Source of the DNA: Clostridiales bacterium CCNA10
GTDB lineage: Bacteria; Verrucomicrobiota; Kiritimatiellia; RFP12; UBA1067
Length of the DNA stretch: 46,779 nucleotides
Reading direction: 5' to 3'
Assembly (NCBI GenBank): GCA_963618935.1
Contig: CAVEVC010000107.1
Span: 1-46,779, forward strand
The notes under the pieces were generated by a model. That model ran no database searches and had not been told where the DNA came from. It saw nothing but the letters and a program-made list of their open reading frames with translations. This document shows, piece by piece, positions 2,224-46,723 of the stretch. Within the stretch, counting starts at the first letter, position 1, and each line of letters begins with the position of its first letter. Position numbers and translations under genes: made by a program.

Positions 2224-3258
2224 CTAACGTGCAGCGAAACCCATCTCGCGGATCCGCCCGAGCGCAATCCCCGCCTGGCGCGCCGTGAACGCGCCCTTCG
2301 ACGGTCCCCACGCGGCGAAGCCGCGCATTATGCCGTCAACATCCCATGCGCCCTCGCGCGTCACAAGCCAGTGGACGGACGCAAGTAGTTCCATGCCCTC
2401 CGGCGACTCGAAGCCCTCGCAGAGGTCGAGCACGCGCCGGATGCGGGCCGCCGTGCCGGGGCATTCCCCGAGAAACGATTCCGCCTCCTCCGACGCGCCG
2501 GGCACGAGCGAAAGCGGCTTGTCCGGGTTGTCCCCGCCGTCCAGGTAGCCGTATAGGAAATGCCCCTCGATGCGCCGGAGCACGTGCGTGAGGTTTTCCG
2601 CATAGGGCCCGTGCGGGGCCTTGACGAAATCAAGGCGCAGACGCTCACCGGCCTCCTGGAGGAAGTACATCAGCTTGTGGACTTCGAGAAGCGTCAGATA
2701 CGGGGCCATCATCGCACCGAGGTAGCGACGCGCAAGCTCGACGAGCGACGCACGGCCCGGCGTCATCGCGGGCGCGGAGGTCGTGACGGCGGAGAACTCG
2801 ACCGCGCCGTCCGGCTCGTGGACAACGAAGCGGCATCCATCCAACGCCGCAAGGCTCCGCTCGACGAGCGGCCTCACGTCGCGCCAGGAAAGACCGCCGA
2901 GGCCGCATCCGATCGGCGGCATGGAAAGCGAGCGGATGCCGAGACGCGCGACGACGCGGGCCAGGTCGTCAAGGCCCGCCGAGATGTCCTCGATCCGGCT
3001 TTTTCCACGCCAATGGCGCTTTGTCGGGAAGTTGACGATCCAGCGCGGCGCAACGAGGCATCCCGTATCATGGACGAACATCCGTCCGACACGCACCTCG
3101 CCGGTCTTGCACGCGGCCGCATACGCCTTGAAGTTGTCCGGGAATCGGTTCTTGAACTGGAGTGCGACGCCGCGCCCCATGACGCCGACGCAGTTCACCG
3201 TGTTGACGAGCGCCTCGCACCCGTCGTCGAAAAGACTGCCCTTTCGGAATTCGACCAT
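2224..3258 (-). CDS. darG: DarG antitoxin (macrodomain ADP-ribosylglycohydrolase with C-terminal DarT-binding domain)
   Basis: The N-terminal macrodomain shows LVNTVNCVGVMGRGVALQFK and PPIGCGLGGL. At 344 aa it fits the DarG size class. It sits 16 nt downstream of a DUF4433 gene. Confidence 0.85.
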   Translation of the reverse strand: MVEFRKGSLFDDGCEALVNTVNCVGVMGRGVALQFKNRFPDNFKAYAAACKTGEVRVGRMFVHDTGCLVAPRWIVNFPTKRHWRGKSRIEDISAGLDDLARVVARLGIRSLSMPPIGCGLGGLSWRDVRPLVERSLAALDGCRFVVHEPDGAVEFSAVTTSAPAMTPGRASLVELARRYLGAMMAPYLTLLEVHKLMYFLQEAGERLRLDFVKAPHGPYAENLTHVLRRIEGHFLYGYLDGGDNPDKPLSLVPGASEEAESFLGECPGTAARIRRVLDLCEGFESPEGMELLASVHWLVTREGAWDVDGIMRGFAAWGPSKGAFTARQAGIALGRIREMGFAAR

Positions 3259-3274
3259 CTCAGGACCTCCTCAT

Positions 3275-3901
3275 TCAGTAGTACCACTCCGGGACGGCTT
3301 CGACGCATACGCCCGCGGCACTCGCCCGCGACAACGCCTCCATCACTTCGCCGCGCACGCCGACGTCAAGGACGCCGATCCTCGACACGAGCGGAAACGG
3401 GACGCGGGCCTCCACAAGGAATTCTGCCTGCTTGCGCTCTACGCAGTTCCGCCAGTCCGTCGCGTTGATCGCCGCCCAGTCCAGCGCGGCAAGCCCTGCC
3501 ATGTCGCTTCCGAATTCAGCCGTCGCACTGCTCGCATTGCGGTCCGTGAACGCCGTACGGAGCCCCTGCGCATCCGCCCACCGCCTTACGGCCTCCGCCG
3601 CGAACTCAAGATGAAGGATCGGACGCTCCCCGCCATGATAGGACACATCCGGATGATTGCCACAATGGAGGATGTAGAGCATGACGGAGCGCGGACAGAA
3701 GTAGAACGGCACGCAGCCGCCGACGAAAAGACCCTCGTGACATGGCACGGGCTTGGAGAGACGGCGGGCCTTCACGTGACTCATCCCAATCGTCGTCCCC
3801 GTGCGTCCAAGGCGGCGGGCTTCGCCGTCCGCGTAGATGAATCCGTCGGCAACCATCGACGCAAGCCGATCAAGATGTACGATATGATAGATTGGCGTCA
3901 T
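3275..3901 (-). CDS. darT: DarT toxin (DUF4433 ssDNA ADP-ribosyltransferase)
   Basis: MTPIYHIVHLDRLASM, VPFYFCPRSVMLY and KQAEFLV are the DUF4433/DarT hallmarks. I use the ATG at 3901, because the track start at 3919 is a TTG. Confidence 0.85.
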   Translation of the reverse strand: MTPIYHIVHLDRLASMVADGFIYADGEARRLGRTGTTIGMSHVKARRLSKPVPCHEGLFVGGCVPFYFCPRSVMLYILHCGNHPDVSYHGGERPILHLEFAAEAVRRWADAQGLRTAFTDRNASSATAEFGSDMAGLAALDWAAINATDWRNCVERKQAEFLVEARVPFPLVSRIGVLDVGVRGEVMEALSRASAAGVCVEAVPEWYY

Positions 3902-3934
3902 CGTGTCCAAGCATCTCAAAAGGACGCAGTGTGT

Positions 3935-19622: not shown

Positions 19623-21140
19623 TCACGCGGTGGGCGCCGACCGCCCCGCCCTGTTCAGCAAATCCGCAAGCCCGCGGCAGGGCACACGCGCCAGCTCGCG
19701 GGGTTCGACCTTCTGCAGCCCGCCGCCATACGACCGCCCCGCATTGCGGATAGACTGCGCCGAAATGCCCAGAAGCACGTTCCAGACCTCTTCGTTCCGC
19801 CCGGCGTCCCCCTGCACGAACTGCGCCAGCGCCCCCTTGGGATAGAGCATGAGGAACGAGTTCGTGGCGATGGCCCGGGAGTCGTTCAGGATAAACCTCA
19901 CCGGCACCCCGCCCGCGCTCCCGCGCCCCATGTAGGAACAGAGAATGGGAGCCGGTTCGCGCTGTTCCTGCGCGTACCAGACATTCCGTGATGCACACAG
20001 GTTCCGCTTCGCCGTATCCTCAATCCCCGATGCGAGGTAGGATTGGACGGATGCCGGAAGCTCGGCAATCTCATACCCCGTGCAGTCAAGCAGGAAACGC
20101 CGTTCCGCGTTCACCGGCACTCCCAACGTATCCGCCTTGACATGATCAACCTTGAGATGTCGCGGACTCGGCAGGATCGGTTTCAGATAGCGCCTGGGAA
20201 TTCCCCTCTCACGTACCGTCGACTCGTTCAAGACGAAGAACCCGTTGTCCCCCGTCGCAATACCCCGCCGGATGTCGAAACAATCTCCCAGACGGAGGCC
20301 ATCCCCGTCTTCGCCCCCTCTTCGCGGTGGCCATTTCGACGCTTTCCGCAGCACCTCGCGTCCATACGTCTCGGACCGGATTGGATGTTCAAGATCGGTA
20401 CCGTAGGTGAAGACCGCCTTGGCCCTTTCCGGCATGACGTTACGGAACCAGACGACGCACGAGGAAACAAGTGCATCGGAGAAACGTACGTCCGCCGCGT
20501 CAAACGCGTGGACGCGCAGCAAGGTGACGCGCCGCGCCAGAAAGTCGCGCAACGCCTTTCCGTAGTTGACCGACATCCACTCCGACGGAATGAGCCAAGC
20601 TCCCACGGCTTCCGGCTTCATCCAATTCCAGGACAATAACAGAAAATGGCAGTAAAGCCCCGCCAATCCGGAAATGGAGACATCCGCACGCCGCGCGACC
20701 GCATTTTGCAACCGCTTCTTGTCCGCGCACGGAATCGCATGGTGGCGCACATAGGGCGGATTGGCAAAGACGACGTCCGCCAGACTCTCCGGTACAAGCG
20801 CCGTGAAGTCCCCCTCGACGATTCGACAACGCCGTCCCCCCCACAGGCGTACCGCCGCACGATGGAACGCCGCATCGCGCTCACAGGCAAAGACCTCCTT
20901 CAAGGAACGCCCCAACTCGGCATAGGCTGCGGAAACAAACGCGCCGGTTCCAACCGAAGGCTCCAACATCGTCAGTCCACCCTCACCGTGCAGATAGGGC
21001 CGCGTTTCCCGCACAATGGCAGAGGCCAGTTCAAAAGGCGTCGCAAACTGTCCCATTCGCCGACGATCTTCGATCGTCTTCGCCGCGTCGATCGTTTTTT
21101 GCGCCTCCTGCCGCGCCGTTTCGACCTGGTTCAACGTCAT
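19623..21140 (-). CDS. Type II N6-adenine DNA methyltransferase (Eco57I-like, gamma class)
   Basis: Motif I (LEPSVGTGAF) precedes motif IV (FANPPYV). There is a 4-nt overlap with the upstream nuclease gene. GC is about 53-58% in hand-counted lines. Confidence 0.85.
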   Translation of the reverse strand: MTLNQVETARQEAQKTIDAAKTIEDRRRMGQFATPFELASAIVRETRPYLHGEGGLTMLEPSVGTGAFVSAAYAELGRSLKEVFACERDAAFHRAAVRLWGGRRCRIVEGDFTALVPESLADVVFANPPYVRHHAIPCADKKRLQNAVARRADVSISGLAGLYCHFLLLSWNWMKPEAVGAWLIPSEWMSVNYGKALRDFLARRVTLLRVHAFDAADVRFSDALVSSCVVWFRNVMPERAKAVFTYGTDLEHPIRSETYGREVLRKASKWPPRRGGEDGDGLRLGDCFDIRRGIATGDNGFFVLNESTVRERGIPRRYLKPILPSPRHLKVDHVKADTLGVPVNAERRFLLDCTGYEIAELPASVQSYLASGIEDTAKRNLCASRNVWYAQEQREPAPILCSYMGRGSAGGVPVRFILNDSRAIATNSFLMLYPKGALAQFVQGDAGRNEEVWNVLLGISAQSIRNAGRSYGGGLQKVEPRELARVPCRGLADLLNRAGRSAPTA

Positions 21141-22084
21141 AGCCCCAGCGCCTCCATGTCGACCATGCGGTGTTCCCAGATCCAGTCAATCCCCTCGGCC
21201 GCCTCATAGCCCAGGTATCCGCTGTCGAAGTAGCCACAGAGGAACAGCACGAAACGGACATCCGGCCCAAACGTCCTTTTCAATTGCTGGATCTTCTGCG
21301 CCTCTTCCTTCCGACGCTTGTTGACGTTGGCAAAATCTCCGGCGGACTTCGCCTCGATAAAGAGGGGAACGGAGTCAGGCTGGGCATTTCGCGGCAGAAT
21401 CGCCACGTCGACGGGGATGTTCACGGTCTCCGTCCGTGCATCGGACAGGAAGACCCTGACATTGAGGTGGTAGGCGAACTCCCCCGGACGAAGCTCGGCG
21501 GAAGAGGCCGGACGAACCCTCCGATAACCGCGCGCCTCCAGGAAATCCGCAATTGCCTTGAGCTGCCGCTCTTCCTGCGCCTTGCGGATGATGGGATCGG
21601 AGTAGGCACCGCACAGACGATCCGCGACAATCAGCGATGCCCGCGCGCGCTGGACGGCAGAAGCCCTTTTACCCGTCGCGAGCCACGGCAGAAGGTCGTG
21701 GTCCAAAAGCTTGGCAATGACCCCCATGATTTTTTCCGAGGCCTCCCGCGCATCGCGCACGGCACGCTTCCGCCCCTCGTCCTCCATGCCCCTGACCACG
21801 GCGGAACCGACCCGCGCCAATCCCGCCAGGCGGTCACGCGCCAACGGTGGGCATGTCATCTGGCGCAGGACAGGCAGCATCGTCGGCGCAAGCGTGAGCA
21901 TCGCCGCATTGAGGCTGCACCCATCCTCCGTCACCAGAAAGACCTCGTCCACGTTCTTCCGCGCCCGTTCACGCGCCGCGCGAAACGCAGGCGGCGCAAA
22001 CGCCAGAAACCACCGGTTGTAGAAATCCACCGATTGCTCGATGTCGTTCTTCCAATCATCGACGCGCTGGCGATTGATGTCCAT
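21137..22084 (-). CDS. Type II restriction endonuclease (XamI-family-like, PD-(D/E)xK)
   Basis: It starts MDINRQRVDDWKNDIEQ. The PD-ExK-like catalytic region is IPVDVAIL...LFIEAKSAGDFANVNKRRKEE. It is translationally coupled to the methylase. The family name is from memory of XamI-type sequences and is not verified. Confidence 0.65.
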   Translation of the reverse strand: MDINRQRVDDWKNDIEQSVDFYNRWFLAFAPPAFRAARERARKNVDEVFLVTEDGCSLNAAMLTLAPTMLPVLRQMTCPPLARDRLAGLARVGSAVVRGMEDEGRKRAVRDAREASEKIMGVIAKLLDHDLLPWLATGKRASAVQRARASLIVADRLCGAYSDPIIRKAQEERQLKAIADFLEARGYRRVRPASSAELRPGEFAYHLNVRVFLSDARTETVNIPVDVAILPRNAQPDSVPLFIEAKSAGDFANVNKRRKEEAQKIQQLKRTFGPDVRFVLFLCGYFDSGYLGYEAAEGIDWIWEHRMVDMEALGL

Positions 22085-22110
22085 GAAACGACCGGCGGCG
22101 GTAGTAAAGC

Positions 22111-23457
22111 TTAGAGCGCGAGGCGCAGGGTCGATTCGCGGGCGGGGCCGATGGAGAGGATGCCGAGCTTCGCGCCCGAGAGCTCCACGAGGCGGTCCAC
22201 GTAGGCTTTCGCCTTGGGCGGCAGGTCCTCGATGCGCGTGACGTGGGAGGTCTCGCACATCCAGCCGTCCATCTCCTCGTAGATCGGCTTCACGCGGGCG
22301 AGCTCGTCCGCCGAGGTCGGCATGTCCTCGATGCGGCGGCCGTCCAGCTCGTAGGCGACGCAGATCTTGATCTTCGGGAAGACGTCCATCACGTCGAGCT
22401 TCGTCATCGCCCAGTAGTCGATGCCGTTGATCTGCTGCGCGTAGCGCGCGACGACGGCGTCGTACCAGCCCGTGCGGCGGGGACGCTTCGTGACCGCGCC
22501 GAACTCGTGTCCGCGCTCGGCGAGCGTCCGCCCGTCCGCGTCCTGCTTGTCCTCGGCGTTGTAGAGCTCCGTCGGGAACGGCCCCGCGCCGACGCGCGTC
22601 GTGTAGGCCTTGACCACGCCCACCACGCAGTCGATGTCGCGCGGGGAGAGGCCGCTGCCGATGCACGCGCCGCCCGAGGTCGGGTTGGACGAGGTGACGA
22701 AGGGATAGGTGCCGAAGTCGATGTCGAGCATCGTTCCCTGGGCGCCTTCGAGGAGGATGGACTTGCCGGCGGCCTTCGCCTGGTGGAGCATCGGCACGGT
22801 GTCGCGGATGTAGGGCGAGAGCTTCTCCTGCGCGGCCCTGTAGATGGCGACGATTTCGTCCGCGTCCATCTGGTAGCCGCGGACCGTGCAGCCGGGCACG
22901 TCGATCTGGTCGCCCGCGTCCACGCGCTCGGCCTTCAGCATCCGCAGGCGGCGGTTCGTCTCCTCCACCTGCTCGCGCACGGCGTCGAGGAAGTTCGCCG
23001 CGAGCATGTCGCCGCACCGGAGGCCCGTGCGGGAGACCTTGGCGGCGTAGGCGGGGCCGATCCCGCGCCCCGTCGTGCCGATCTTCTTCCCCGCCGCGCG
23101 GGCGGCCTCCTCCGCCTTGTCGAGCGCGCGGTGGTAGAGCATCACCATCTGGGTGCGGGTGGAGATGAAGAGGCGTCCCTTCGGCTCGACGCCCGTCGCG
23201 CGCATGGCCTCGATCTCCTCGATGAGGTCGAGCGGGTTCATCACGACGCCGTTGCCGATGACGCAGACCTTGCCGTCGTGGAGGATGCCGCTCGGGATGA
23301 GGCGCAGGACGCGCGTGCGGCCCTCGGCGATGACGGTGTGGCCGGCGTTGGAGCCGCCCTGGTAGCGCACCACGTAGTCCGCCTTGTCCGTCAGGACGTC
23401 GATGATCTTCCCCTTGCCCTCGTCGCCCCATTGGGCCCCGACCAAAACCGTATTCAT
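22111..23457 (-). CDS. purA: Adenylosuccinate synthetase
   Basis: MNTVLVGAQWGDEGKGKIIDVL, GGSNAGHTV and GTTGRGIGPAY are present. Start at 23457; the track's upstream extension is non-protein-like. Confidence 0.95.
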   Translation of the reverse strand: MNTVLVGAQWGDEGKGKIIDVLTDKADYVVRYQGGSNAGHTVIAEGRTRVLRLIPSGILHDGKVCVIGNGVVMNPLDLIEEIEAMRATGVEPKGRLFISTRTQMVMLYHRALDKAEEAARAAGKKIGTTGRGIGPAYAAKVSRTGLRCGDMLAANFLDAVREQVEETNRRLRMLKAERVDAGDQIDVPGCTVRGYQMDADEIVAIYRAAQEKLSPYIRDTVPMLHQAKAAGKSILLEGAQGTMLDIDFGTYPFVTSSNPTSGGACIGSGLSPRDIDCVVGVVKAYTTRVGAGPFPTELYNAEDKQDADGRTLAERGHEFGAVTKRPRRTGWYDAVVARYAQQINGIDYWAMTKLDVMDVFPKIKICVAYELDGRRIEDMPTSADELARVKPIYEEMDGWMCETSHVTRIEDLPPKAKAYVDRLVELSGAKLGILSIGPARESTLRLAL

Positions 23458-28693: not shown

Positions 28694-29863
28694 TCAGAGC
28701 GCCCCCGTCGCGAGGGCGCCGAACGTGGTGATCGGCGTCGTGTCGCGGTAGTTGTCGATGATCTGGCGCACGTCCTTGATGACCGCGTTCACCTCGTCGT
28801 ACATCTCGCGCTCCGCCACCAGCCGGCCGAGCGTGCCCTCGCCCTTCTCCAGGCGCTCGGAGACGGCGCGCAGGTTCGCGACGAGCTTCGCGGCGTCGTC
28901 CGCAAGCGCGGCGTCGTTGAACGCGCGCCCGAGCAGGCCCTCGCCGCCCTTCAGCTTCGCGGTGGCGGCGCGCACGTCCGCGACGGCGTTCGTGAGGTCG
29001 CCCCAGAGCGCGTCGTCCTTCGCGGTCAGCCGCCCGAGCGTGCCCTCGCCGCGCTCGATGCGCGCGGAGATCGCGGCCGCGTTCGCGAGCGTCTGCTTCA
29101 GGTCGGCGTAGACGGCGTCGTCCTTCGAGAGGAGGCGGCCCAGCGTGCCCTCGCCCCGGTCCAGCCGCTCGGCGACGGCGGCGGCGTGGTCGAACGTCTT
29201 CCGGGCGCCGTCGAAGGTCTTCTCGGCGTCGCCGACGGCGCGCTTCGCGCCCGCGACGGCCTCGCGCAGGTCCCGGTAGACGGCGTCGTCGCGCGAGAGG
29301 AGCCTGCCCGCCGTGCCCTCGCCGCGCGCGACGCGCGCGACGATCTTGTTGACGTTCTCCGCCGTCGCCTCGAAGTTGGAGACGATGCTCTTGAAGGAGC
29401 CGTCGTTCAGGACTTCGTTGAGGCTGCCGGCGATCCGCCCGAGGTCGCGCATCCAGTCGATGGGCGGGTCGCCCCGGAAGACGGTCGTCGCAAGGGGCAT
29501 CGCCGCGCCGTCGCCCTCTTCGAGGAGGAGGTAGTTGCCGCCGAGGAGCGAGAGCGCCGAGACGGAGGCGCGGCAGGTCGCGCGCAGCACGACGTCGCGG
29601 TCCACGAGCGCCGTGACCATGACGTTCGTGGGCGCGAGCTCGATCTTCTCGACGATGCCCACCTTCATGCCGCGGTAGACGACGTTGTCGCGCTCCTTGA
29701 GCCCGCCCACGTCCGTGAACGCGATGCGCGCCAGCGCCTTCTCGCGCCCGAAGAGGACGTCCACGCCGGAGATGACGACGGTGAAGTAGACGAGGAGCGC
29801 GAGGACGGCGACCATGAAGACGCCCACGACGACTTCCGAGAACACGTCAGAGTTCTTTTTCAT
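28694..29863 (-). CDS. mlaD: MlaD/MCE-family lipid-transport substrate-binding protein
   Basis: It has an N-terminal TM anchor and an MCE domain (VGGLKERDNVVYRGMKVGIVEKIEL). Repeated RGEGTLGRLL helical motifs follow. It lies downstream of mlaE and mlaF. Confidence 0.85.
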   Translation of the reverse strand: MKKNSDVFSEVVVGVFMVAVLALLVYFTVVISGVDVLFGREKALARIAFTDVGGLKERDNVVYRGMKVGIVEKIELAPTNVMVTALVDRDVVLRATCRASVSALSLLGGNYLLLEEGDGAAMPLATTVFRGDPPIDWMRDLGRIAGSLNEVLNDGSFKSIVSNFEATAENVNKIVARVARGEGTAGRLLSRDDAVYRDLREAVAGAKRAVGDAEKTFDGARKTFDHAAAVAERLDRGEGTLGRLLSKDDAVYADLKQTLANAAAISARIERGEGTLGRLTAKDDALWGDLTNAVADVRAATAKLKGGEGLLGRAFNDAALADDAAKLVANLRAVSERLEKGEGTLGRLVAEREMYDEVNAVIKDVRQIIDNYRDTTPITTFGALATGAL

Positions 29864-34090: not shown

Positions 34091-34121
34091 ATTATATTTT
34101 TTTTTTCCTGCCAGAGGTCAA
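34091..34121 (-). promoter_or_regulatory. Sigma70-like promoter (-35 TTGACC, -10 TATAAT) with an A10 tract in a 19-bp spacer, upstream of the beta-helix gene
   Basis: The minus strand reads TTGACC-TCTGGCAGG-AAAAAAAAAA-TATAAT. The -10 is at 34091-34096, the -35 at 34116-34121 and the homopolymer at 34097-34106. Confidence 0.5.
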
Positions 34122-34174
34122 TCTGGAATCCAAGTTTTGCTTGTGTTTTTTTTGCTGTGGACGGCGGGCCTCAG

Positions 34175-34218
34175 AAAAACGGACGCGCGGCGGCACGGAA
34201 GAATCCGTGCCGCCGCGC
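34175..34218 (-). terminator. Rho-independent terminator after dhaK
   Basis: The minus strand has a perfect 15-bp stem GCGCGGCGGCACGGA / TCCGTGCCGCCGCGC with a 4-nt loop, followed by GTCCGTTTTTC. Confidence 0.8.
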
Positions 34219-34242
34219 GGGCCGTCCGGGCGGGCCTTCGCC

Positions 34243-35244
34243 CTAGCGGGTCGTCCAGTAGGGCGCGTTCGCCGGGGCCGCGAGATACTGCGCGCAGGCG
34301 TCGCAGCACTTGCAGAGGATCATCTGGAAGCCCGCCATCTCCTGCACCGTGAGGAGCTCGTCGCACTTTCCGGGGAGGACGACGACGCCCATCGCCTCCA
34401 GCATCTGCTTCGCCTTGCGGTAGCAGATGAGCATTTCCATCGTCGTCGTGGCGCCCGAGCCGTTGATGAGGAGGAGCGCCTTGTCGCCGGCGGCGAGCTT
34501 CGTCGCCTTGACGAGCGGGGGCAGCATCTTCTCGACGGTCTCGTCGGCCGTACACATCTTCGAGATGCCGCCGCCGCCTTCGCCGTGCTGGCCCATGCCG
34601 ATCTCCATCTCGTCGTCCGCGAGCGAGCCGATCTCGCCGCCGTTCTGCGGGTGCGTGGCGGTCTTGAGCGCCACGGAGAGGGTCGCGATGCCCTCGTTGA
34701 AGGCGTTGGCGAGCGCGACGATCTCGTCGAGGCTCCGGCCCGCCTCGGCCGCCGCGCCGACGACCTTGATGAACGGGATGACGCCGCCGAGGCCGCGCTT
34801 GTCCTCGACCGGGGTGTCGGGGCCCTGGGCGATGTCGTCGTGGATGACGACCTCCACCACCTTGAGGCCGGCCTTCTGCGCCTTGCGCATGGCCTTCGAC
34901 CCGCTCATGCGGTCGCCGTTGTGGTTGAGCGTGATGAGGAGCGTGCCCGCGTCGCGCTTGACGTAGTCGAGGGCCTCGAACACCTTCTCGCCGCCCGGCG
35001 CGGCGAAGATGTCGCCGGCGACGCACGCATCGAGCATGCCCTCGCCCACGAAGCCGTGCATGGCCGGCTCGTGGCCGGAGCCGCCGAACGCGACGAGCGC
35101 GACCTTGCCGGCGTCCTTCGGCGTCCTGCGCACGACGATCTTCTCGTTGACGAGCGCGAGCGTGTCGGAATAGCACCCGACGAGGCCTTCCAAAAGTTCC
35201 TTGGTGAGGTTCGCGGGATCGTTGATGAACTTCTTCATGGGCAT
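34243..35244 (-). CDS. dhaK: Dihydroxyacetone kinase DhaK-type subunit (Dak1 domain)
   Basis: MPMKKFINDPANLTKELLEGLV, VALVAFGGSGHEPAMHGFVGEGMLDA and the overall Dak1 layout match. No dhaL or dhaM is adjacent. Confidence 0.85.
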   Translation of the reverse strand: MPMKKFINDPANLTKELLEGLVGCYSDTLALVNEKIVVRRTPKDAGKVALVAFGGSGHEPAMHGFVGEGMLDACVAGDIFAAPGGEKVFEALDYVKRDAGTLLITLNHNGDRMSGSKAMRKAQKAGLKVVEVVIHDDIAQGPDTPVEDKRGLGGVIPFIKVVGAAAEAGRSLDEIVALANAFNEGIATLSVALKTATHPQNGGEIGSLADDEMEIGMGQHGEGGGGISKMCTADETVEKMLPPLVKATKLAAGDKALLLINGSGATTTMEMLICYRKAKQMLEAMGVVVLPGKCDELLTVQEMAGFQMILCKCCDACAQYLAAPANAPYWTTR

Positions 35245-35270
35245 GGAGGATTCTCCTTTGGCATTAAGCC

Positions 35271-35428
35271 GCCGCTTCGCGGCTTTAAGTAGTTAAGCAG
35301 TTAAGTTGTTAAGTAGTTAAGTAGTTAAGTTGTTAAGTGGTTAAGTGGTTAAGTGGTTAAGTAGTTAAGTTGTTAAGTTGTTAAGTTGCTAAGTTGTTAA
35401 GTAGTTAAGTTGTTAAGTTGTTAAGTTA
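35271..35428 (+). repeat. GC hairpin (GCCGCTTCGCGGC) followed by 18 contiguous 8-bp units TTAAGTNG
   Basis: The units run back-to-back from 35285 to 35428. The variable base is A/T/G. Variants are TTAAGCAG, CTAAGTTG and terminal TTAAGTTA. The array is strongly AT-rich in a GC-rich genome. Confidence 0.95.
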
Positions 35429-35433
35429 TTATA
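35428..35433 (-). promoter_or_regulatory. Possible -10 box TATAAT at the inner edge of the repeat array (would place the array in the dhaK 5' leader)
   Basis: The minus strand reads TTCTATAAT. There is no TG extension and no convincing -35. Confidence 0.25.
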
Positions 35434-35462
35434 GAAGCAGCAACAAAATGGATTGATCGTTC

Positions 35463-35520
35463 GGGAGGGCGCGTGTCCTCACGCGCCGCAAATACGGCGG
35501 CTGGGGACAGCCGCCCTCCC
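35463..35520. repeat. GGGAG-[hairpin]-spacer-[hairpin]-CTCCC element (second family member)
   Basis: GGGAG (35463-67) can pair with CTCCC (35516-20). The hairpins are GGCGCGTG/CACGCGCC (35468-87) and GGCGGCTG/CAGCCGCC (35496-515). It shares GTGTCC..CGCGCCG..GGC[hairpin]GCCCTCCC with the 25426-25499 element. Confidence 0.8.
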
Positions 35521-35568
35521 AGCGGAATCGAGACAATTAATTGCCGAAGCAAGAAGCAATCTGCTCAT

Positions 35569-35700
35569 CACTTAACCACTCAAGCCGCGAAGCGGCGACT
35601 TAACCACTTAACTACTTAAAGACTTAACTACTTAAAGCCGCGAAGCGGCGACTTAACCACTTAACTACTTAAAGCCCGTAGGGCGACTGAACCACTTAGC
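35569..35700 (+). repeat. Inverted arm: 12 CNACTTAA units (reverse complement of TTAAGTNG) interleaved with three GC hairpins
   Basis: Nine units are exact ACTTAA and three are degenerate. The hairpins are GCCGCGAAGCGGC (35584-96, 35637-49) and GCCCGTAGGGC (35674-84). A 40-nt module is repeated exactly at 35582-35621 and 35635-35674. The arm abuts the VOC gene stop codon. Confidence 0.95.
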
Positions 35701-36032
35701 TATTTTTGAAAGAACTCGACCTGCGGGCCGTCCGGGTAGCCCACGTAGGCGATGGCGCACGTGCCGCCGAGGGCGTACTTCGGCAGCAGCACGGCGGCGC
35801 CCTCCTTCACGGCCTCGTCGACGGCGGCCTGCACGTCGGCGACCTCGTAGGCCACGTGCGCCTCGGCGACCATGCGCCACGCGCACGGCGTGTTCGGCTC
35901 CCAGTAGAGGTATTCGATGGCGTAGTCCGCGTTGCTGCAGATCCACACCTTGAGGCCGGGCATGTAGGTCATGCCCGCCATCTTGGCGGGAACGGGAATG
36001 CCCGTGTGCATGTAGGTCTTCTCGATGGTCAT
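35700..36032 (-). CDS. VOC/glyoxalase-like small protein
   Basis: It is 110 aa. HVAYEVADVQAAVDEAVKEGAAVLLP...YVGYPDGPQVEFFQ resembles a single VOC (glyoxalase/bleomycin-resistance) module. Confidence 0.6.
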   Translation of the reverse strand: MTIEKTYMHTGIPVPAKMAGMTYMPGLKVWICSNADYAIEYLYWEPNTPCAWRMVAEAHVAYEVADVQAAVDEAVKEGAAVLLPKYALGGTCAIAYVGYPDGPQVEFFQK

Positions 36033-38748: not shown

Positions 38749-41388
38749 TCACTCTTCCTCCGCCTTGACGTCCGGGAACCACTTCTGCGCCCACTTCGCG
38801 CAGTCCTCGAAGCCCGCGACGGCCTCCTTCACGAAGACGGGCGCGAACTCGGCGGCGCCCTCCACCTCCGTGTAGAGGAGCTGGAGCGTGAGCGCCGCGC
38901 CAAGCATCTGCTTGGACCACGGGAGCGGGCCCGTGCGGAGCGTGTCGCGCCCCTTGCGCACGAGGCGGTTCAGGAGCTGGTTCATGTAGCCCACGTTGTC
39001 CTTCTTGCCGTAGAAGCGGCTCCAGTCGATCTTCTGCGGGCGCTCGGCGACCTTCTTGCCCTTCACGGTCCGCACGCGCTGGAGCGTGATCGCCTTCGCG
39101 TCGACCGCCGCCACCTCCGTGCCGTCCTTGAACTTGAAGCCCTTCGCCTTCGCGATGAAGAGCTTCTGCAGCTCCTGCATGTACTGGACCTTCGTCATCT
39201 GGGAGCGCACCTCGTCCCGCCCCTCGGGCGTCGTCGTCTCGTCGAGGAGGGCCTGCAGCTGCCGCAGGGCGGGCTCCCAGTCGAGCGTCTTCAGGCGCGT
39301 GCCGACGAGCTCGTCGAACTTCTCCCCGGCGGCCTTCGCCTCCGCCTCCGCCTTCGCCTTGTGCGCCTCGGCGGCCTTCGCGGCGGCGGCCTCCTTCGCC
39401 GCCTTCTCGGCCTGCGCCTTCGCCTCGCGCGCGGCCTTGTCCACGACGCGCTTGATCTGCTGCTGGGCGGAGCGGACGAGCGAGACGGAGCGCGTGCGGA
39501 TGACGGCGGCCTTGCGCTGCGTCTGCTCCACGCACTTCATGCCCTTCAGCTGCTCGAAGCCCTCCACGAGGACCTGCGAGAGCTTGGCGAGCGCGCGCAC
39601 GGTCTCCTCGTCCTCGCCCGTCAGCTTCTCCGCGGCCTTGCCCTTCTCCAGCAGAAGCGCCACGTTCCCCTGCACGCGGATGTCCGCCGCGCGGCACGCA
39701 TAGACGTCCGCCCACAGCTCGACAAACTGCTTCACGGCGGCGGGCACCGCCGCCTCGGGCGCCTTCTCCTCCTTCTCCTTCTCGCCTCCGTCTTCGGCGG
39801 GCGCCTCCTTCGGCTGTGCCGCCTGGGCGACGGCGTTCGTCGTGGCGCCGGCCTTCGCGGCGGCGACGGCGTTCGTCGTGGCGGCCTTCACGGCGGGGAC
39901 CGCGTTCGTCGTGCCGGGCGCAGCGGCGGGGGCGGCGTTCGTCGCGGCGGGCGCCGCGTTCGTGCCCGCCTCGGCCTTCGCCTTCGCCTCGGCGGCGGCG
40001 GCGTTCGCCTCGGCGGCGGCCTGGGCGGCGGCGGCGATGAAGAGCTGGTTCGTGTAGGCGACCGCGTCCGCCACGTCCTTCGTGGGCGGCGCCTCGATGA
40101 AGGCCCGCGCGGCGTCCCGCAGGTCCGGCGGCACGCTCCCCTTGACCTGGCGCACGGCGTCGGCCATCTCCTTGTCGCACTTGGCGACGAGCGCGTGGAA
40201 GTCCACGCCGAACTTCGCGATGGACTTGAGCGTCGTCTCGACGGCGCCCCTCGCCTTGTCGCGCGTCTCGACGAGCTGCTGGTAGGCCTCGCGCTTCTCG
40301 CGCGCCTGCTCGGACTTGACGTACCAGAAGAGCCCGCCCACCACGAGCAGGACCAGGAGGACGATGCCGCCCGCGACCATGCCCACGATCGCGCCGACGC
40401 CCAGGTGCCTCTCCTCGGCGGGCGCCGCCTCCCCCTCGGCCGCCTCGCCCTCGGCCGCCGGCGCCGCCGTCTCCTCGGCGGAGAGCTTCATCTTGATCTT
40501 CGCGCCCTTGATCTTCACCTTCGGCGCGGCCACCTTCGAGGTCTTGCCGGCCCCCATCTTCGAGAGGACGCGCTTGAAGTCGCCGAGCAGGGACTGGTAG
40601 GTCGGGTAGCGCATCGAGGGCTCGAGCTCGAGCATGCGCAGGATGATGGGGTCGAGCTCCGGCGGCAGGCCGGCGCGCACCTCGCTCGGCCGGCGCGGCG
40701 GCCCGTCGAAGCGCGCCTTCACCACCGCCGCCGCGTCCTCGCCCTCGAACGGCGCCACGCCCGTGAGCGCGTGGTAGAGCGTGCCGCCCAGGGAGTAGAT
40801 GTCGGCGCGGTAGTCGATCTTCTGCCGGCGCACCTTCTCGGGGGAGATGTAGTAGGGCGTGCCCCAGATCTCGCTGGCGTCGCCCTGCATGGCGGCGAGG
40901 CCGAAGTCCACGAGCTTCGCGTTGCCGTCCGCGTCGAAGAGCACGTTCTCGGGCTTCACGTCGCCGTGGACGAGCCCCTGCTCGGCGGCGAGCGCGAGCG
41001 CGTCCGCCACCTGCCGGCCCGCCTTCATCACGCGCACGGGGTCCATCGTGCCGGGGTTCGCCTCCATCTCCTTGTCGAGGGAGCCGCCGCAGACGAGCTC
41101 CATCGCGATGTAGGGCATGCCGTCCTCCTGGCCGAAGGAGTAGATCTGCGCGATGTTCGGGTGGTTGAGGCGCGCCGCGGCCTGGGCCTCGCGCTGGAAG
41201 CGCGCGACGAACGCGGGGTCCTCGCCGAGGGACTTCAGCATCACCTTGATGGCGACCTTGCGGTCCAGCATCTTGTCGCGCGCCAGGTAGACGCCGCCCA
41301 TGCCGCCGTGGCCCAGCTCCCGCTCCAGGACGAAGTGCCCGAAGTCGGACGGCGTGGGAATCATCTGTTCGTCGTTTTCTTCGCTCAT
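38749..41388 (-). CDS. Membrane Ser/Thr protein kinase (non-RD, HGD variant) with long Ala/Lys/Glu-rich extracytoplasmic region
   Basis: Kinase motifs are GHGGMGGVYLA, VAIKVM, HGDVKPENVLF, DFGLA and GTPYYISPE. The TM segment is GAIVGMVAGGIVLLVLLVVGGLFWYV. Low-complexity TNA(A/V)PA repeats lie around nt 39830-39960. Confidence 0.85.
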   Translation of the reverse strand: MSEENDEQMIPTPSDFGHFVLERELGHGGMGGVYLARDKMLDRKVAIKVMLKSLGEDPAFVARFQREAQAAARLNHPNIAQIYSFGQEDGMPYIAMELVCGGSLDKEMEANPGTMDPVRVMKAGRQVADALALAAEQGLVHGDVKPENVLFDADGNAKLVDFGLAAMQGDASEIWGTPYYISPEKVRRQKIDYRADIYSLGGTLYHALTGVAPFEGEDAAAVVKARFDGPPRRPSEVRAGLPPELDPIILRMLELEPSMRYPTYQSLLGDFKRVLSKMGAGKTSKVAAPKVKIKGAKIKMKLSAEETAAPAAEGEAAEGEAAPAEERHLGVGAIVGMVAGGIVLLVLLVVGGLFWYVKSEQAREKREAYQQLVETRDKARGAVETTLKSIAKFGVDFHALVAKCDKEMADAVRQVKGSVPPDLRDAARAFIEAPPTKDVADAVAYTNQLFIAAAAQAAAEANAAAAEAKAKAEAGTNAAPAATNAAPAAAPGTTNAVPAVKAATTNAVAAAKAGATTNAVAQAAQPKEAPAEDGGEKEKEEKAPEAAVPAAVKQFVELWADVYACRAADIRVQGNVALLLEKGKAAEKLTGEDEETVRALAKLSQVLVEGFEQLKGMKCVEQTQRKAAVIRTRSVSLVRSAQQQIKRVVDKAAREAKAQAEKAAKEAAAAKAAEAHKAKAEAEAKAAGEKFDELVGTRLKTLDWEPALRQLQALLDETTTPEGRDEVRSQMTKVQYMQELQKLFIAKAKGFKFKDGTEVAAVDAKAITLQRVRTVKGKKVAERPQKIDWSRFYGKKDNVGYMNQLLNRLVRKGRDTLRTGPLPWSKQMLGAALTLQLLYTEVEGAAEFAPVFVKEAVAGFEDCAKWAQKWFPDVKAEEE

Positions 41389-44864: not shown

Positions 44865-46544
44865 TTATTTTTTGAGCGACGCGCCCGTCGAGGCATTGCC
44901 CACGAACGTGGCGTAGCGTTCCAGCCAGCCGCCCTTGATGCGGGGCGTCCAGGGCCTGAGCGCCCTGCGGCGCTCCGCGATCTCGGCCTTCGCGAGCTTC
45001 GCGGAGATCGCGCGCTTCGGGATGTCGATCGTGATCTCGTCGCCGTCCTTCAGGAGGCCGATGAGACCGCCCTCGGCCGCCTCGGGCGAGACGTGCCCCA
45101 CGCACGCGCCGTGCGTCGCGCCGCTGAAGCGCCCGTCGGTGATGAGCGCCACGCTCTCGCCGAGACCCGCGCCGATGATGTAGCTCGTGGGCGCCAGCAT
45201 CTCCTGCATCCCCGGCCCGCCCTTCGGACCCTCGTAGCGGATCACCACGACGTGCCCCGGCTTCACCTTGCCGCCGAGGATGCCCGCGCAGGCCTCCTCC
45301 TGGCTGTCGAAGCAGATCGCCCGGCCCGTGAACGCCATCATCGAGGACGCCACGCCCCCCTTCTTCACGACGGCGCCGCGCTCGGCGAGGTTGCCCCACA
45401 GGACGGCGAGGCCGCCGTCCGCCGAGTAGGCGTTCGCCAGCGTGCGGATCACGTCGTCGTCCGCGATCTTCGCCGCCGCCACCTGCGCGCCGAGCGTCTT
45501 CCCCGAGACGGTCTTCGCCTTGAGGTCGAGGAGCTTCTTCGGCAGGCGCTTCAGGATCGCCATGACGCCGCCCGCGCGGTCGAGGTCGCTCACGTGATAC
45601 TGTCCCGACGGCGCAAGCCTGCAGATGTAGGGCGTGCGGGCCGAGATCTCGTTCATCCGCTCGAGCGAGTAGTCGACGCCCGCCTCGCGCGCGATCGCGA
45701 GCGTGTGGAGGACCGTGTTCGTGGAGCCGCCCATCGCCATGTCGAGCGTGAGCGCGTTGTCGAGGCTCGCCTGCGTGACGAGGTCGCGCGGACACGGCCC
45801 GCCCGCCTTCGCGAGCGCCACCGCGCGGAACGCGGCCTGGCGGTAGAGTTCCTTCCGGCGCGGATCGACCGCGAGGACCGTCCCGTTCCCCGGGAGCGCC
45901 ATGCCCAGCGCCTCGTAGAGGCAGTTCATCGAGTTCGCCGTGAACATCCCGCTGCACGAGCCGCAGCCCGGACAGCTCGTCTCCTCAACGGCCTCCAGCT
46001 CCTTCTGCGTGATCCGGCCCACGTTCTCGGCGCCCACGGCCTCGAAGACGGAGTTGAGGTCGGTGTCCGCCCCCGTCCTCGGATGCCGGCCGGGCGCCAT
46101 CGGCCCGCCCGAGGCGAAGACGGTGGGGATGTTCACGCGCAGCGCGCCGATGAGCATGCCGGGCACGATCTTGTCGCAGTTCGGCACGCAGATGAGCGCG
46201 TCGAAGCAGTGCGCGCGCGCGACGGTCTCCACGCTGTCCGCGATCAGCTCGCGGCTCGGCAGGGAGTATTTCATGCCCGCGTGCGCCATCGCGATGCCGT
46301 CGCAGACGGCGATCGTGTTGAACTCCATCGGCACGCCGCCCGCCTCGACCACGCACTGCCTGATCCATGCGCCCACCTTGTCCAGGTGGCAGTGCCCCGG
46401 CACGAAGCTCTCGTAGCTGTTGCAGATGCCGATGAACGGCTTCTTCATGTCCGCGCGCGTCAGCCCCGTCGCGAACAGCAACGACCGATGCGGCGCGCGC
46501 GCGTTGCCGGCCTTCACCTGGTCCGAAACCATCTTCCGCTTCAT
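44865..46544 (-). CDS. ilvD: Dihydroxy-acid dehydratase
   Basis: [46 protein letters not shown] and the C-terminal [10 protein letters not shown] are present. An alternative start at M5 (46532) is possible. Confidence 0.95.
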
Positions 46545-46614
46545 CCTTCCGACTCCTTCCGCTTCATCTTGACTCCTTCAGATTCATCTTCCGACTCCTT
46601 CAGATTCATCTTCC
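46536..46614 (-). repeat. Tandem 20-22-bp repeats (about 3.5 copies), each carrying an SD-like AAGGAGTC plus ATG, at the ilvD 5' end
   Basis: The minus strand reads GGAAGATGAATCTGAAGGAGTC x2, then AAGATGAAGCGGAAGGAGTC, then GGAAGGATGAAGCGGAAG. A 22-codon uORF (46609..46541, [22 protein letters not shown]) ends in a TGA that overlaps the ilvD ATG. Confidence 0.9.
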
Positions 46615-46654
46615 AGAATCCTTCTCGTTTTTCTTTCCCGAAATCCGTCCGCAC

Positions 46655-46681: not shown

Positions 46682-46723
46682 AGGTTGAAGGTTTTAGGTG
46701 TTAGGTTTCAGGTTGCAGGCTTT
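46682..46723 (+). repeat. Six contiguous 7-bp units AGGYNNN (AGGTTGA AGGTTTT AGGTGTT AGGTTTC AGGTTGC AGGCTTT) just upstream of the ilvD promoter
   Basis: The units are read directly from the sequence. A further AGGTTTA lies at 46741-46747. GGCTTTATG is duplicated at 46718-46726 and 46730-46738. Confidence 0.8.

Follow-up and report, generated by a model that had tools for sequence, protein, structure and literature searches.

An inverted octamer repeat inserted between the VOC and dhaK genes is one copy of a dispersed non-coding family that may act, if at all, in mRNA

What is the AT-rich repeat that separates a small VOC/glyoxalase-like gene from dhaK, how did it come to lie there, and does it do anything? 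In the window, i.e., the whole 46,779-nt stretch of DNA analyzed, the two genes are separated by a non-coding, dyad-symmetric insert of 440 bp with the architecture (TTAAGTNG)n, core, (CNACTTAA)m, in which the two arms face inward and small GC hairpins are added. The features of the locus are as follows.

34243-35244, minus strand: dhaK (Dak1 domain, E = 2e-92), the downstream gene
35260-35699, no strand assigned: the complete insert, whose limits are the VOC stop codon and a point just 5' of the dhaK Shine-Dalgarno (SD) sequence
35264-35283, plus strand: outer terminal module of the left arm, a degenerate unit TTAAGCC with the GC hairpin GCCGCttcGCGGC (35271-35283)
35285-35431, plus strand: left (start-proximal) arm, 18.4 contiguous TTAAGTNG units
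35428-35433, minus strand: exact TATAAT next to the start-proximal unit that comes first, candidate -10 box of dhaK
35432-35569, no strand assigned: core between the arms, constant within the species and not among family copies
35463-35520, no strand assigned: two inverted GGGAGGGCG-headed GC palindromes forming a REPIN-like pair, found once in the window and located within the core
35534-35543, no strand assigned: CAATTAATTG palindrome, present in the strain alleles and missing in the related locus L190
35556-35575, minus strand: arm-core junction TTAAGTGATGAGCAGATTGC, common to the window and the orthologous element of L190
35570-35702, minus strand: right (stop-proximal) arm, 12 TTAAGTNG-type units (minus strand) and three hairpin modules
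35700-36032, minus strand: small VOC/glyoxalase-like gene with a weak Glyoxalase_4 match, the upstream gene

The earlier note had described this locus element by element, and its description proved accurate throughout. The gap it put at about 455 bp measures 455 nt from the VOC stop (35700) to the dhaK start (35244), and the locus is indeed non-coding and dyad-symmetric. The left arm, counted there as 18 units, was resolved by TRF as 18.4 copies of TTAAGTTG at 35285-35431 with 90% matches. The right arm holds the 12 inverted units, three of which are variants of CNACTTAA, together with three GC hairpins (35584-35596, 35637-35649, and 35674-35684), and its 40-nt module at 35582-35621 is duplicated exactly at 35635-35674. 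The TATAAT, the double hairpin (35463-35520), and the CAATTAATTG palindrome (35534-35543) are all present in the core. The VOC stop codon sits in the first, degenerate, unit of the right arm. The arms are inverted relative to each other, with 90% complementarity over 59 nt (35264-35322 versus 35598-35656) and longer matches in other registers. At the variable position N, T or A predominates in the left arm and G, A, or C in the right arm; since these are not complementary between the arms, nothing indicates selection for perfect pairing. On the minus strand, the sense strand of dhaK, the left arm reads (CNACUUAA)18 and contains just 2 G per 144 nt.

The two-unit pattern has 24 matches in the window, all within 35285-35672, where shuffles expect 0, and the hexamers TTAAGT and ACTTAA are absent from the rest of the 46.8 kb. 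The GC content of the locus is 0.455 compared with about 0.70 around it, and the only ORFs listed over it are short (40-48 aa) and centered on the core. Neighboring genes encode Dak1, the glyoxalase-like protein (its Glyoxalase_4 match being under the Pfam cut-off), a solute symporter, a Ser/Thr kinase, and an ABC ATPase. No cas-like neighbors were found, and the 8-nt units are contiguous and without spacers, so the array is not a CRISPR. The arms repeat a unit in the 1-11-nt range head to tail beyond chance, as long simple sequence repeats do, and the whole is small, lacks coding capacity, and ends in inverted repeats, as MITEs and foldback elements do. The view that the locus fits no feature class went too far: the locus belongs with the long simple-sequence repeats, its unit being 8 nt, and its inverted pairing has been catalogued, with no mechanism attached, in Geobacter metallireducens (PMC2700814).

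The history of the spacer was read from orthologous loci. VOC and dhaK form an operon pair in relatives, and at the element-free loci the VOC stop is joined to an AAAGGAGA-type SD and the ATG within 9-55 nt. The AAAGGAGA sequence itself (35252-35259, minus strand) is common to the window and two empty sites (L115 and L116); in the window the dhaK SD, AAGGAG, lies 8 nt 5' of the ATG. Orthologous loci with 93-94%, 77%, and 75% DhaK identity have no array, and L190, with 95% DhaK identity, has the element at the same site. Because the spacers of relatives measure 9-55 nt and lack the repeat, the copy in the window is a recent insertion. Comparison of the filled and empty junctions shows that the element entered the short spacer of the VOC-dhaK operon in recent ancestors of the organism, and the arm-core junction common to the window and L190 shows that both carry one ancestral insertion. 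The insertion polymorphism and the dispersed copies described below are also those of MITE or foldback elements. The VOC protein ends in ...EFFQK* in the window and in ...EFFQN* or ...EFFQD* at empty sites, the last codon and the stop being different. No target-site duplication was evident when the window and L190 were compared with the empty sites L115-L125, the nearest of which is about 10% diverged with the last codon and stop rewritten.

An assembly artefact was ruled out, since the same element is present in independent assemblies (L001, L274-L279, and L190). The strain alleles have flanks that are 99% identical and keep 133 nt of core without any difference, and 138 of the 139 core nucleotides are shared by the window and L274, yet the arms vary. 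The stop-proximal arm measures 97, 133, or 187 nt, corresponding to 2, 3, or 4 hairpins; on the start-proximal side, L274 and L275 have about 10 units and the window 19. At another orthologous site, three MAGs carry 18, 5, and about 9 units. Differences of this kind between closely related genomes show, as read from the assemblies, that the arms behave as a VNTR growing and shrinking quickly by 8-nt units and 53-nt modules.

All strain alleles keep the TATAAT of the core, which L190 lacks; no -35 box was seen with it, and a consensus scan of the locus reported no promoter. The same juxtaposition, TATAAT-TA-ACTTAACA, recurs at L014. The double hairpin, which has a GGAG head, is missing from the L190 allele and is probably a secondary insertion, a passenger in the core. 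In L056, L038, and L084, both core and flanks are packed with REPs of the GTAGGGCG type. Across the family, cores are unrelated between copies in both sequence and length. A 9-nt identity of GGTTAAGTC with a conserved 16S stretch was treated as coincidence.

The repeat is not confined to this spacer. An array scan yielded at least 113 stretches, and the loci of high-GC MAGs form at least 45 clusters. The family recurs at many unrelated intergenic sites of Kiritimatiellota/Lentisphaerota-type MAGs of high GC content, often with 4-5-bp GC hairpins amid the units. Three Kiritimatiellota-type MAGs (CAKUCX, CAKULR, and UMGS1035) have 8-10 loci each, and a Lentisphaeraceae MAG has 6, with the same arms and hairpin modules. 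Within the unit, only position 7 varies freely (G.51, A.31, T.15, and C.03), the other seven being conserved. Copies adjoin unrelated housekeeping genes, which speaks against a regulon, and some lie within operons, at the leuC|leuD (L112) and porA|porB (L028) junctions. Scattering over many unrelated sites had been named beforehand as the outcome that would make the locus an ordinary repeat; this was largely what was found, and the supposedly unique locus is reduced to one copy of a repeat family. Many copies are single-armed, so a stem between arms cannot be their common function. A universal machinery recognizing TTAAGTNG, suspected from its occurrence in about 20 phylum-level groups, was rejected: in viral contigs, 3-unit arrays of three permuted octamers of the same composition gave 15, 19, and 26 matches compared with 19 for TTAAGTNG. 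Part of the cross-phylum signal is thus generic microsatellite background. Literature searches on the exact repeat strings and on Kiritimatiellae repeats returned no papers.

Neighboring arrays of opposite orientation were always inward-facing (19 '+-' and 0 '-+' pairs, with gaps of 21-837 nt). Strand usage is tied to gene ends in bacterial genomes of many phyla: arrays that follow a stop codon have their C-free strand as the sense strand, and those that precede a start codon have the G-free one; according to gene calls made with home-made heuristics, 54 of 68 arrays at high-GC loci and 51 of 60 in low-GC genomes of many phyla obey this rule, as do 9/10 arrays of other asymmetric units. Single-arm arrays in unrelated phyla also follow it. 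The same code gave about 50:50 on viral contigs, which excludes an ORF-calling artefact, and a replication-strand bias is excluded by the occurrence of both orientations on one strand inside a single spacer. G-free arrays reach within 2-13 nt of real start codons that have no SD (L014, L059, L051, L018, and L024), and the arrays of Vibrio (L008) and Psychromonas (L012) come after a stop codon and before a separate canonical terminator. The rule can, however, stem from purifying selection on the tolerated sites of a neutral repeat rather than from a positive function.

The hairpin modules were characterized separately. In an unselected census, 19 of 29 GC-rich inserts between units had a perfect stem of at least 4 bp, and several different stem sequences occur (GCCGC, GCCCC, GCCC, and GGCC). 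The modules are 11-13 nt long with stems of 4-5 bp and folding energies of -6 to -10.8 kcal/mol, the lowest value being that of the left-arm terminal module in the window, and are followed by UUUAAGU, i.e., by three U. In all 32 modules, the hairpin precedes TTTAAGT on the strand leading away from the adjacent gene; about half of the family arms have no hairpin. A terminal module, TTAAGTC-GCCGCTTCGCGGC-TTTAAGT, ends the elements in L190, L037, L084, L040, and L043. The terminator scan flagged no module, the sole terminator-like site at the locus being in the VOC coding sequence; the modules lack the U run that follows a stable GC stem-loop in an intrinsic terminator, and an efficient terminator is further excluded by the elements within leuCD and porAB. 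No Rfam model reached its gathering score in the window, matches at the locus being at chance level (E >= 0.77), and the tRNA scan found nothing.

Folding bore out the long hairpin proposed in the earlier note. As RNA, the whole locus is predicted to fold back on either strand at -201 and -205 kcal/mol (z = -15 and -12.6), and a further whole-element stem has z = -9.7. The base of the predicted stem puts the VOC stop codon beside the dhaK SD. The start-proximal arm alone, as sense RNA, has an MFE of 0 kcal/mol. Cruciform extrusion in DNA was judged unlikely on general grounds, as the arms are imperfect and 140-275 bp apart.

Taken together, the locus is interpreted, tentatively but in preference to the alternatives, as a copy of a foldback-type, MITE/REP-like repeat that is non-coding and dispersed and whose action, if there is any, takes place in the mRNA. 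Its transcription with the flanking genes and any action at the RNA level are inferred. The stop-proximal arm would then resemble a 3' UTR, C-free and carrying mini hairpins, and the start-proximal arm would be a nearly G-free, unstructured dhaK leader, the kind of sequence that could support ribosome loading not reliant on structure. With both arms on one transcript, a paired stem of about -200 kcal/mol could form, looping out the insert and leaving the VOC stop beside the dhaK SD, which would make such an insert tolerable inside an operon. The stem could also serve as an exonuclease barrier or an RNase III site, and a separate dhaK transcript, led by the repeat, may arise from the conserved TATAAT at the core/arm junction. 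Among the ideas put forward in the earlier note, an inter-cistronic or leader RNA with a long stem fits best, given the operon pair of relatives with its 9-55-nt spacer, the UTR positions of the arms, and the folded stem. A multimeric binding site in the dhaK leader, also suggested there, is a conceivable alternative and parallels published ideas for TAACTGA repeats (PMC4679880).

A reading that is possible, though doubtful, agrees on the nature of the element and differs on whether it does anything: a purely selfish or neutral MITE-like or foldback element, whose arms are long TIRs of tandem transposase-binding units mobilized in trans and whose patterns reflect tolerated insertions. Such an origin would account for presence/absence polymorphism at an otherwise conserved operon junction, for the recurring terminal module, for many copies beside unrelated genes with a conserved core in none, and for a non-coding length of less than 500 bp. 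It also fits L099, where both arms of one element share a private TAC loop in their hairpins. Against it, no target-site duplication is recognizable between filled and empty sites, no transposase was found in the window or among the 40 proteins flanking family copies (in 8-kb fragments of the carrier genomes), the orientation rule is obeyed by single-arm arrays of unrelated phyla as well, and compensatory changes in the hairpin stems suggest some constraint.

More speculatively, and with less probability than the selfish reading, strand-asymmetric short-unit arrays could be a general orientation-dependent UTR device of bacteria. The G-free strand would provide an SD-independent, structure-free ribosome landing pad or a Rho/S1 target in leaders, and the C-free strand an inert form after stops; in high-GC PVC bacteria both would be joined with hairpin modules into a mobile cassette, with slippage tuning the leader length heritably. 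Dropped into an operon junction, the cassette would loop out in polycistronic RNA or re-start the downstream gene.

It is improbable that the repeat works at the DNA level as an array bound by a sequence-specific protein (a nucleoid-associated or global regulator, e.g., of the RHH type) polymerizing on the 8-bp units from both sides of the spacer. Conservation of all unit positions except position 7 would suit such a protein, and cooperative binding to contiguous 7-8-bp units is known from omega heptads and MetJ metboxes. For analogous paired octamers, the authors of the Geobacter metallireducens study proposed unidentified global regulators or IHF/HU (PMC2700814). However, copies occupy 3'-UTR and 5'-UTR positions as well as the interior of enzyme-subunit operons of unrelated function, with no common regulon; copy number changes two-fold between near-identical strains, the site is missing altogether in close relatives, and no candidate binding protein was found encoded nearby. 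The strand rule at gene ends is also easier to explain for RNA than for duplex DNA.

Similarly low probability is given to a two-sided transcription insulator, in which the arms are weak intrinsic terminators (GC hairpin, UUUAAGU, and U/A-rich array) halting polymerases that arrive from the flanks, with dhaK re-expressed from a core promoter. The invariant polarity of the modules, the inward-facing arms, and the layout of this locus, with three tandem modules past the VOC stop and a TATAAT ahead of the dhaK-side arm, agree with it. Yet stems of 4-5 bp followed by three U, none of them flagged by the scan, contrast with the long stem and T5 of the real terminator that this genome has after dhaK. 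Hairpins are lacking in about half of the arms, elements separate leuC from leuD and porA from porB, pairs that need co-expression, and the arrays of Vibrio and Psychromonas are followed by a canonical terminator of their own.

Still less probable is a contingency locus in which slippage alters the number of leader units and so tunes dhaK expression, like (AGAT)n in the uspA2 leader of Moraxella catarrhalis, a precedent as summarized in PMC4679880. The slippage idea of the earlier note survives in part: alleles whose flanks are 99% identical do differ in start-proximal units (10 versus 19) and in hairpin modules (2, 3, or 4), but no reading frame and no -35/-10 spacing is altered by the number of units. 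In addition, the family adjoins housekeeping rather than surface or virulence genes, and any long microsatellite varies in this way, functional or not. An iteron, a centromere-like site, or a replication-associated array, also proposed in the earlier note, is hardly credible, as the resemblance to contiguous direct and inverted short repeats is only formal, no rep, par, or relaxase genes were found near the element in its chromosomal housekeeping neighborhood, tens of copies per genome lie in the spacers of housekeeping operons, and close relatives do without it.

That free-living bacteria commonly carry arrays of 5-11-nt units has been known since a 2007 survey; these arrays have no accepted function, and the present family offers an unusually clean handle on them: a defined architecture, filled and empty operon junctions in close relatives, and natural alleles of 10 and 19 units on identical backgrounds. 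The strand rule relative to gene ends, which extends across the phyla sampled, predicts that RNA of the two strands behaves differently. If the G-free arm is a translation or termination signal, it would be a sequence-simple and evolvable addition to bacterial UTR control and would explain how operons tolerate large inserts. If the element is inert, it would be a new bacterial example of a foldback-type selfish repeat. In practical terms, it also breaks up the contigs of short-read MAGs from the carrier lineages.

Several known systems were compared with the element. REP, BIME, and REPIN sequences of E. coli and Pseudomonas are small GC palindromes at intergenic or inter-cistronic positions, arranged in clusters of alternating orientation and lineage-specific; their stems vary by compensatory changes, and their classical effect is protection of the mRNA of the upstream cistron. 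The REP-like side of the element consists of the REPIN-like pair in the core and of related loci full of GTAGGGCG-type REPs. Unlike REPs, its bulk is an AT-rich octamer microsatellite and not palindromes, and no RAYT gene was seen in the genome fragments covered. The 11-13-nt hairpins, flanked by TTAAGTC and TTTAAGT, are not the 20-40-nt GC palindromes with a GT(A/G)G head at the stem that define REPs; a GTAG lies 6 nt off on their 3' side rather than adjacent.

With MITEs and with the eukaryotic Foldback/Galileo-type transposons, whose long TIRs are built of tandem repeats (PMC3688188), the element shares long inverted arms of short tandem units, a variable middle, the absence of coding capacity, multiple copies, and insertion polymorphism; it differs in that neither a target-site duplication nor a cognate transposase was found. 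No bacterial example of the Foldback/Galileo type turned up in the literature searches. The prokaryotic long simple sequence repeats with 5-11-nt units (Mrazek et al. 2007), according to their summary in PMC4679880, are likewise intergenic, present in non-pathogens, variable in copy number, and of unknown function, and the 8-nt unit fits among them. As summarized there, the class rests on tandem repetition alone, to which the element adds inverted pairing, hairpin modules, and the orientation rule.

The TAACTGA direct repeats of marine Beggiatoaceae, Cyanobacteria, and Bacteroidetes (MacGregor 2015, PMC4679880) are also short AT-rich tandem units with stops in all frames, heterogeneous downstream gene functions, and a patchy phylogenetic distribution. 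They are mostly intergenic and lie in one orientation directly 5' of start codons, replacing a recognizable SD (PMC4679880), and the start-proximal arms of L014, L059, L051, and L018 act like them. Their unit, however, is a heptamer that contains G, with no hairpin modules described (PMC4679880), and the window has an SD and a hairpin separating the array from the ATG.

The paired tandem octa- and heptanucleotide sites of Geobacter metallireducens, classes 1-3 (Aklujkar et al. 2009, PMC2700814), are likewise opposite-strand pairs at variable distance built of tandem 7-9-nt units (GTTGCTYN, TCTCCGTS, and MTYCTGA). Dozens of pairs per genome are intergenic, with the spacer between the operon genes proB and proA among their positions; they do not occur in the sister species, and their function is unknown (PMC2700814). 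The 19 inward-facing pairs found here, with their gaps of 21-837 nt, have the same organization. The Geobacter arrays comprise 3-5 units of a different sequence versus up to 18 in the element, no GC hairpin modules were described for them, and their authors read them as binding sites of a global regulator or of IHF/HU (PMC2700814). Judged by the unrelated unit sequences, the resemblance is one of shared architecture and not of homology. By analogy, these paired octamer sites and the TAACTGA leader repeats are the closest precedents for the element.

The octamer element fills the 455-nt gap between a VOC/glyoxalase-like gene (a weak match) and a Dak1 gene, dhaK (a solid match), both on the minus strand. 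The local G+C content was 0.455 versus ~0.70 in the surrounding sequence. The description of this locus in the earlier note was accurate throughout, and its two arms are as follows.

35285-35431: left arm, start-proximal (dhaK side); 18.4 copies of TTAAGTTG (TRF), closed by the fourth GC hairpin of the locus
35570-35702: right arm, stop-proximal (VOC side); 12 reverse-complement units and three small GC hairpins

The two-unit pattern was matched 24 times in the window, always inside 35285-35672, and shuffled sequences gave 0 matches; the repeat hexamer did not occur in the window outside the octamer locus. The reported 40-nt duplication was present and exact, and the inversion of the arms relative to each other was recovered as a 59-nt match (90%). 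RNA of either strand was predicted to fold into the long imperfect hairpin that had been proposed, at -201 and -205 kcal/mol (z = -15 and -12.6 for the two strands). The array is not an assembly artefact, since independent assemblies carry the same element.

With each species represented by a single genome, a search for three units in a row yielded at least 113 stretches; per-genome copy numbers are minima, and the carriers were of two kinds. Among the matches listed, high-GC carriers were a handful of MAGs, each with many loci of the window's architecture: a TTAAGTNG array, a short core varying from copy to copy, and a CNACTTAA array, frequently with TTAAGTC-GC hairpin-TTTAAGT modules between units. 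They comprised two Hadza-gut 'Kiritimatiellaeota' MAGs, human-gut bin UMGS1035, a Lentisphaeraceae MAG, a Phycisphaerae MAG, and a 70%-GC bin labelled Gammaproteobacteria; nucleotide matches of the window to the high-GC MAGs UMGS1035 and CAKUCX were 69-76%. These matches, and the identity of the carriers, make the PVC affiliation assumed in the earlier note plausible. Low-GC carriers belonged to many phyla, and their arrays were simpler, monotonous, and mostly single-armed. Position 7 of the unit was free (G.51, A.31, T.15, C.03) and the other seven were kept. Of the GC-rich inserts between units, 19/29 formed a perfect hairpin (4 bp or more), and several stem sequences were represented. One comparison locus (L047, 31-204) contained seven tandem 27-bp modules (unit plus GGCCtgcGGCC hairpin), a higher-order repeat of hairpin modules only. 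Short-read MAG contigs break at the arrays (L001, L276-L279). A dispersed, non-coding, inverted-array repeat family exists. The octamer itself is not demonstrably special, because three permuted octamers, run on the viral collection only, gave 15, 19, and 26 matches versus 19 for the real one; there is a general background of AT-rich 8-mer microsatellites.

The genes beside the elements have unrelated housekeeping functions (aminoacyl-tRNA synthetase, release factor, ptsI, fabH, lpxA, Mur ligase, type II secretion genes, and transporters), and no transposase was seen among them. Some elements lie within operons, between leuC and leuD or between two subunit genes of 2-oxoacid:ferredoxin oxidoreductase. 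REP/REPIN-like GC palindromes with GTAGGGCG or GGAGGGCG heads gather inside or beside the elements (window 35463-35520; L056 2260-3096; near arrays in L038 and L084), which suggests that a second repeat family lands in the same spacers. The unit-hairpin junction GGTTAAGTC (e.g., window 35640-35656, minus strand) is identical to the conserved bacterial 16S rRNA stretch GGTTAAGTCCCGCAACGA, so that the G-free arm is complementary to it over 8 nt; this identity is treated as coincidence.

For the VOC-dhaK junction, 80 metagenomic loci encoding DhaK relatives were compared. Loci with 93-94%, 77%, and 75% DhaK identity kept the gene order and had no array; the VOC stop and dhaK ATG of such relatives were separated by 9-55 nt, with an SD, AAAGGAGA, recognisably the same as the window's. 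The sole locus of the 80 with an octamer element at the same site was L190 (95% DhaK identity), which shares the arm-core junction TTAAGTGAYGAGCAGATYGC with the window; its element had 8 plus 5 units and neither a REPIN-like hairpin pair nor a TATAAT. The last VOC codon and stop were rewritten (...QK-TAG/TAA versus ...QN/QD-TGA). Judged from these comparisons, the window copy is a recent insertion into the operon spacer. Other features of the window were the following.

35242-35259, minus strand: dhaK SD GGAG predicted to pair with CUCC just before AUG in a small SD-sequestering hairpin; the spacer differs in array-free relatives
34095-34230, minus strand: canonical intrinsic terminator after dhaK, with T5 behind a long GC stem; beyond it lie A-runs and a promoter-like site of the following gene, TTGACC-N19-TATAAT
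46533-46624: 22-bp tandem repeat CTTCAGATTCATCTTCCGACTC, 4.2 copies, lying directly upstream of an ilvD/edd-type dehydratase gene (44865-46544, minus strand) and overlapping its start
46689-46714: heptamer-like run AGGTTTT x3.7, further upstream of the dehydratase gene
2224-3919: toxin-antitoxin pair of DarT (ssDNA thymidine ADP-ribosyltransferase, 3275-3919) and a Macro-domain DarG-like protein (2224-3258), in a lower-GC stretch
19623-23431: Eco57I-type methylase-domain protein adjoining a XamI restriction-endonuclease-domain protein in an island of 0.59-0.67 GC; the pair is probably a restriction-modification system gained by acquisition
28820-29235: GC-rich 102-105 bp tandem repeats within a coding region
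39826-40036: GC-rich 18-33 bp tandem repeats within a Ser/Thr kinase gene (38749-41388)

The terminator and promoter-like site downstream of dhaK show how real signals look in this genome, and the dehydratase-gene repeats form a second short-period repeat region in a gene leader. Around the dhaK locus of other lineages, unrelated heptamer arrays were found (CCAGAAA, CAAATGA, and CAATTGA x22; L132 3501-3536, L160 3503-3561, and L151 4406-4559), two of which begin a few bases past the dhaK stop codon.

The arms behave as a VNTR. Six further assemblies encode an identical VOC protein, and L274 matched the window at 330/333 nt of VOC, 996/1002 of dhaK, and 138/139 of the core. The stop-proximal hairpin modules numbered 2 in L274 and L275, 3 in the window and L277, and 4 in L276; start-proximal units numbered ~10 in L274 and L275 versus 19 in the window. 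At another site, three MAGs 90-93% identical had 18, 5, and ~9 units, with the hairpin GCCGCgaaGCGGC in two and GCCCCgcaGGGGC in the third.

Where neighbouring arrays of opposite orientation lay within 1 kb, TTAAGTNG preceded CNACTTAA on the top strand in 19 cases versus 0, five low-GC genomes included. Moreover, TTAAGTNG was read on the strand leading away from the nearest gene end, so that the sense strand is C-free after stops and G-free before starts. By our own heuristic GC3 and long-ORF gene calls, high-GC loci kept this rule at 41 3' ends (C-free sense) and 13 5' ends (G-free sense) and broke it at 8 and 6, respectively; in low-GC loci of many phyla, the corresponding numbers were 31 and 20 versus 6 and 3. 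Viral contigs run with identical code were about evenly oriented. Other G/C-asymmetric 7-10-nt arrays in bacterial loci (n=10) followed the rule 9 to 1. The two strands are used asymmetrically relative to gene ends. The C-free array of Vibrio and of Psychromonas follows the stop codon and precedes a canonical terminator, which places it in the 3' UTR. At L014, L059, L051, L018, and L024, G-free arrays end 2-13 nt from convincing start codons with no SD, and L014 has the very arrangement of the window, a TATAAT directly adjoining the first unit.

Because the arrays occupy UTR positions and lie inside operons, and the rule refers to individual strands and not to the duplex, any activity of the element would be expected at the RNA level. 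Within the dhaK-side arm, G occurs only twice in 144 nt, and the folding energy predicted for this stretch is zero; such a sequence is extraordinary for a 70%-GC genome. In a polycistronic transcript, this arm would pair with the stop-proximal arm in a predicted stem starting ~16 nt past the VOC stop (directly after it in L190) and ending ~20 nt before the dhaK ATG. Such a stem could loop the insert out and hold stop and start near each other, which would explain the survival of these inserts in operons. On the analogy of REP elements, the stem could also shield the preceding cistron or provide a site for RNase III. The conserved TATAAT at 35428-35433, which has no -35 box and is missing in L190, may yield an additional dhaK-only transcript.

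There are alternatives to this RNA-level reading. A purely selfish, MITE-like element would agree with the TIRs, polymorphism, and many copies; however, TSD and transposase were looked for and none were found. A protein-binding DNA array, by analogy with the proposal for Geobacter sites, a two-sided weak terminator, and a slippage tuning knob are further candidate readings. The iteron or centromere-like array suggested in the earlier note is very unlikely.

The inward-facing and strand rules and the natural allele series are of greater interest than the locus itself, as they make the function of such repeats testable. As a whole, the family belongs with long simple-sequence repeats of 5-11-nt units. 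The dhaK-side arm is similar to G-poor enhancers, of which the TMV omega leader is an example. Start-proximal arms parallel the TAACTGA repeats, published SD-independent leaders (PMC4679880). No description of bacterial long inverted arms of tandem units with hairpin modules was found in the literature, and the Foldback and Galileo elements belong to eukaryotes. The closest case in the literature is Geobacter metallireducens, where tandem octa-/heptanucleotide sites form sets of 24, 21, and 8 opposite-strand pairs, one of them located between proB and proA; the authors proposed global regulators or IHF/HU proteins as binders of these sites (PMC2700814).
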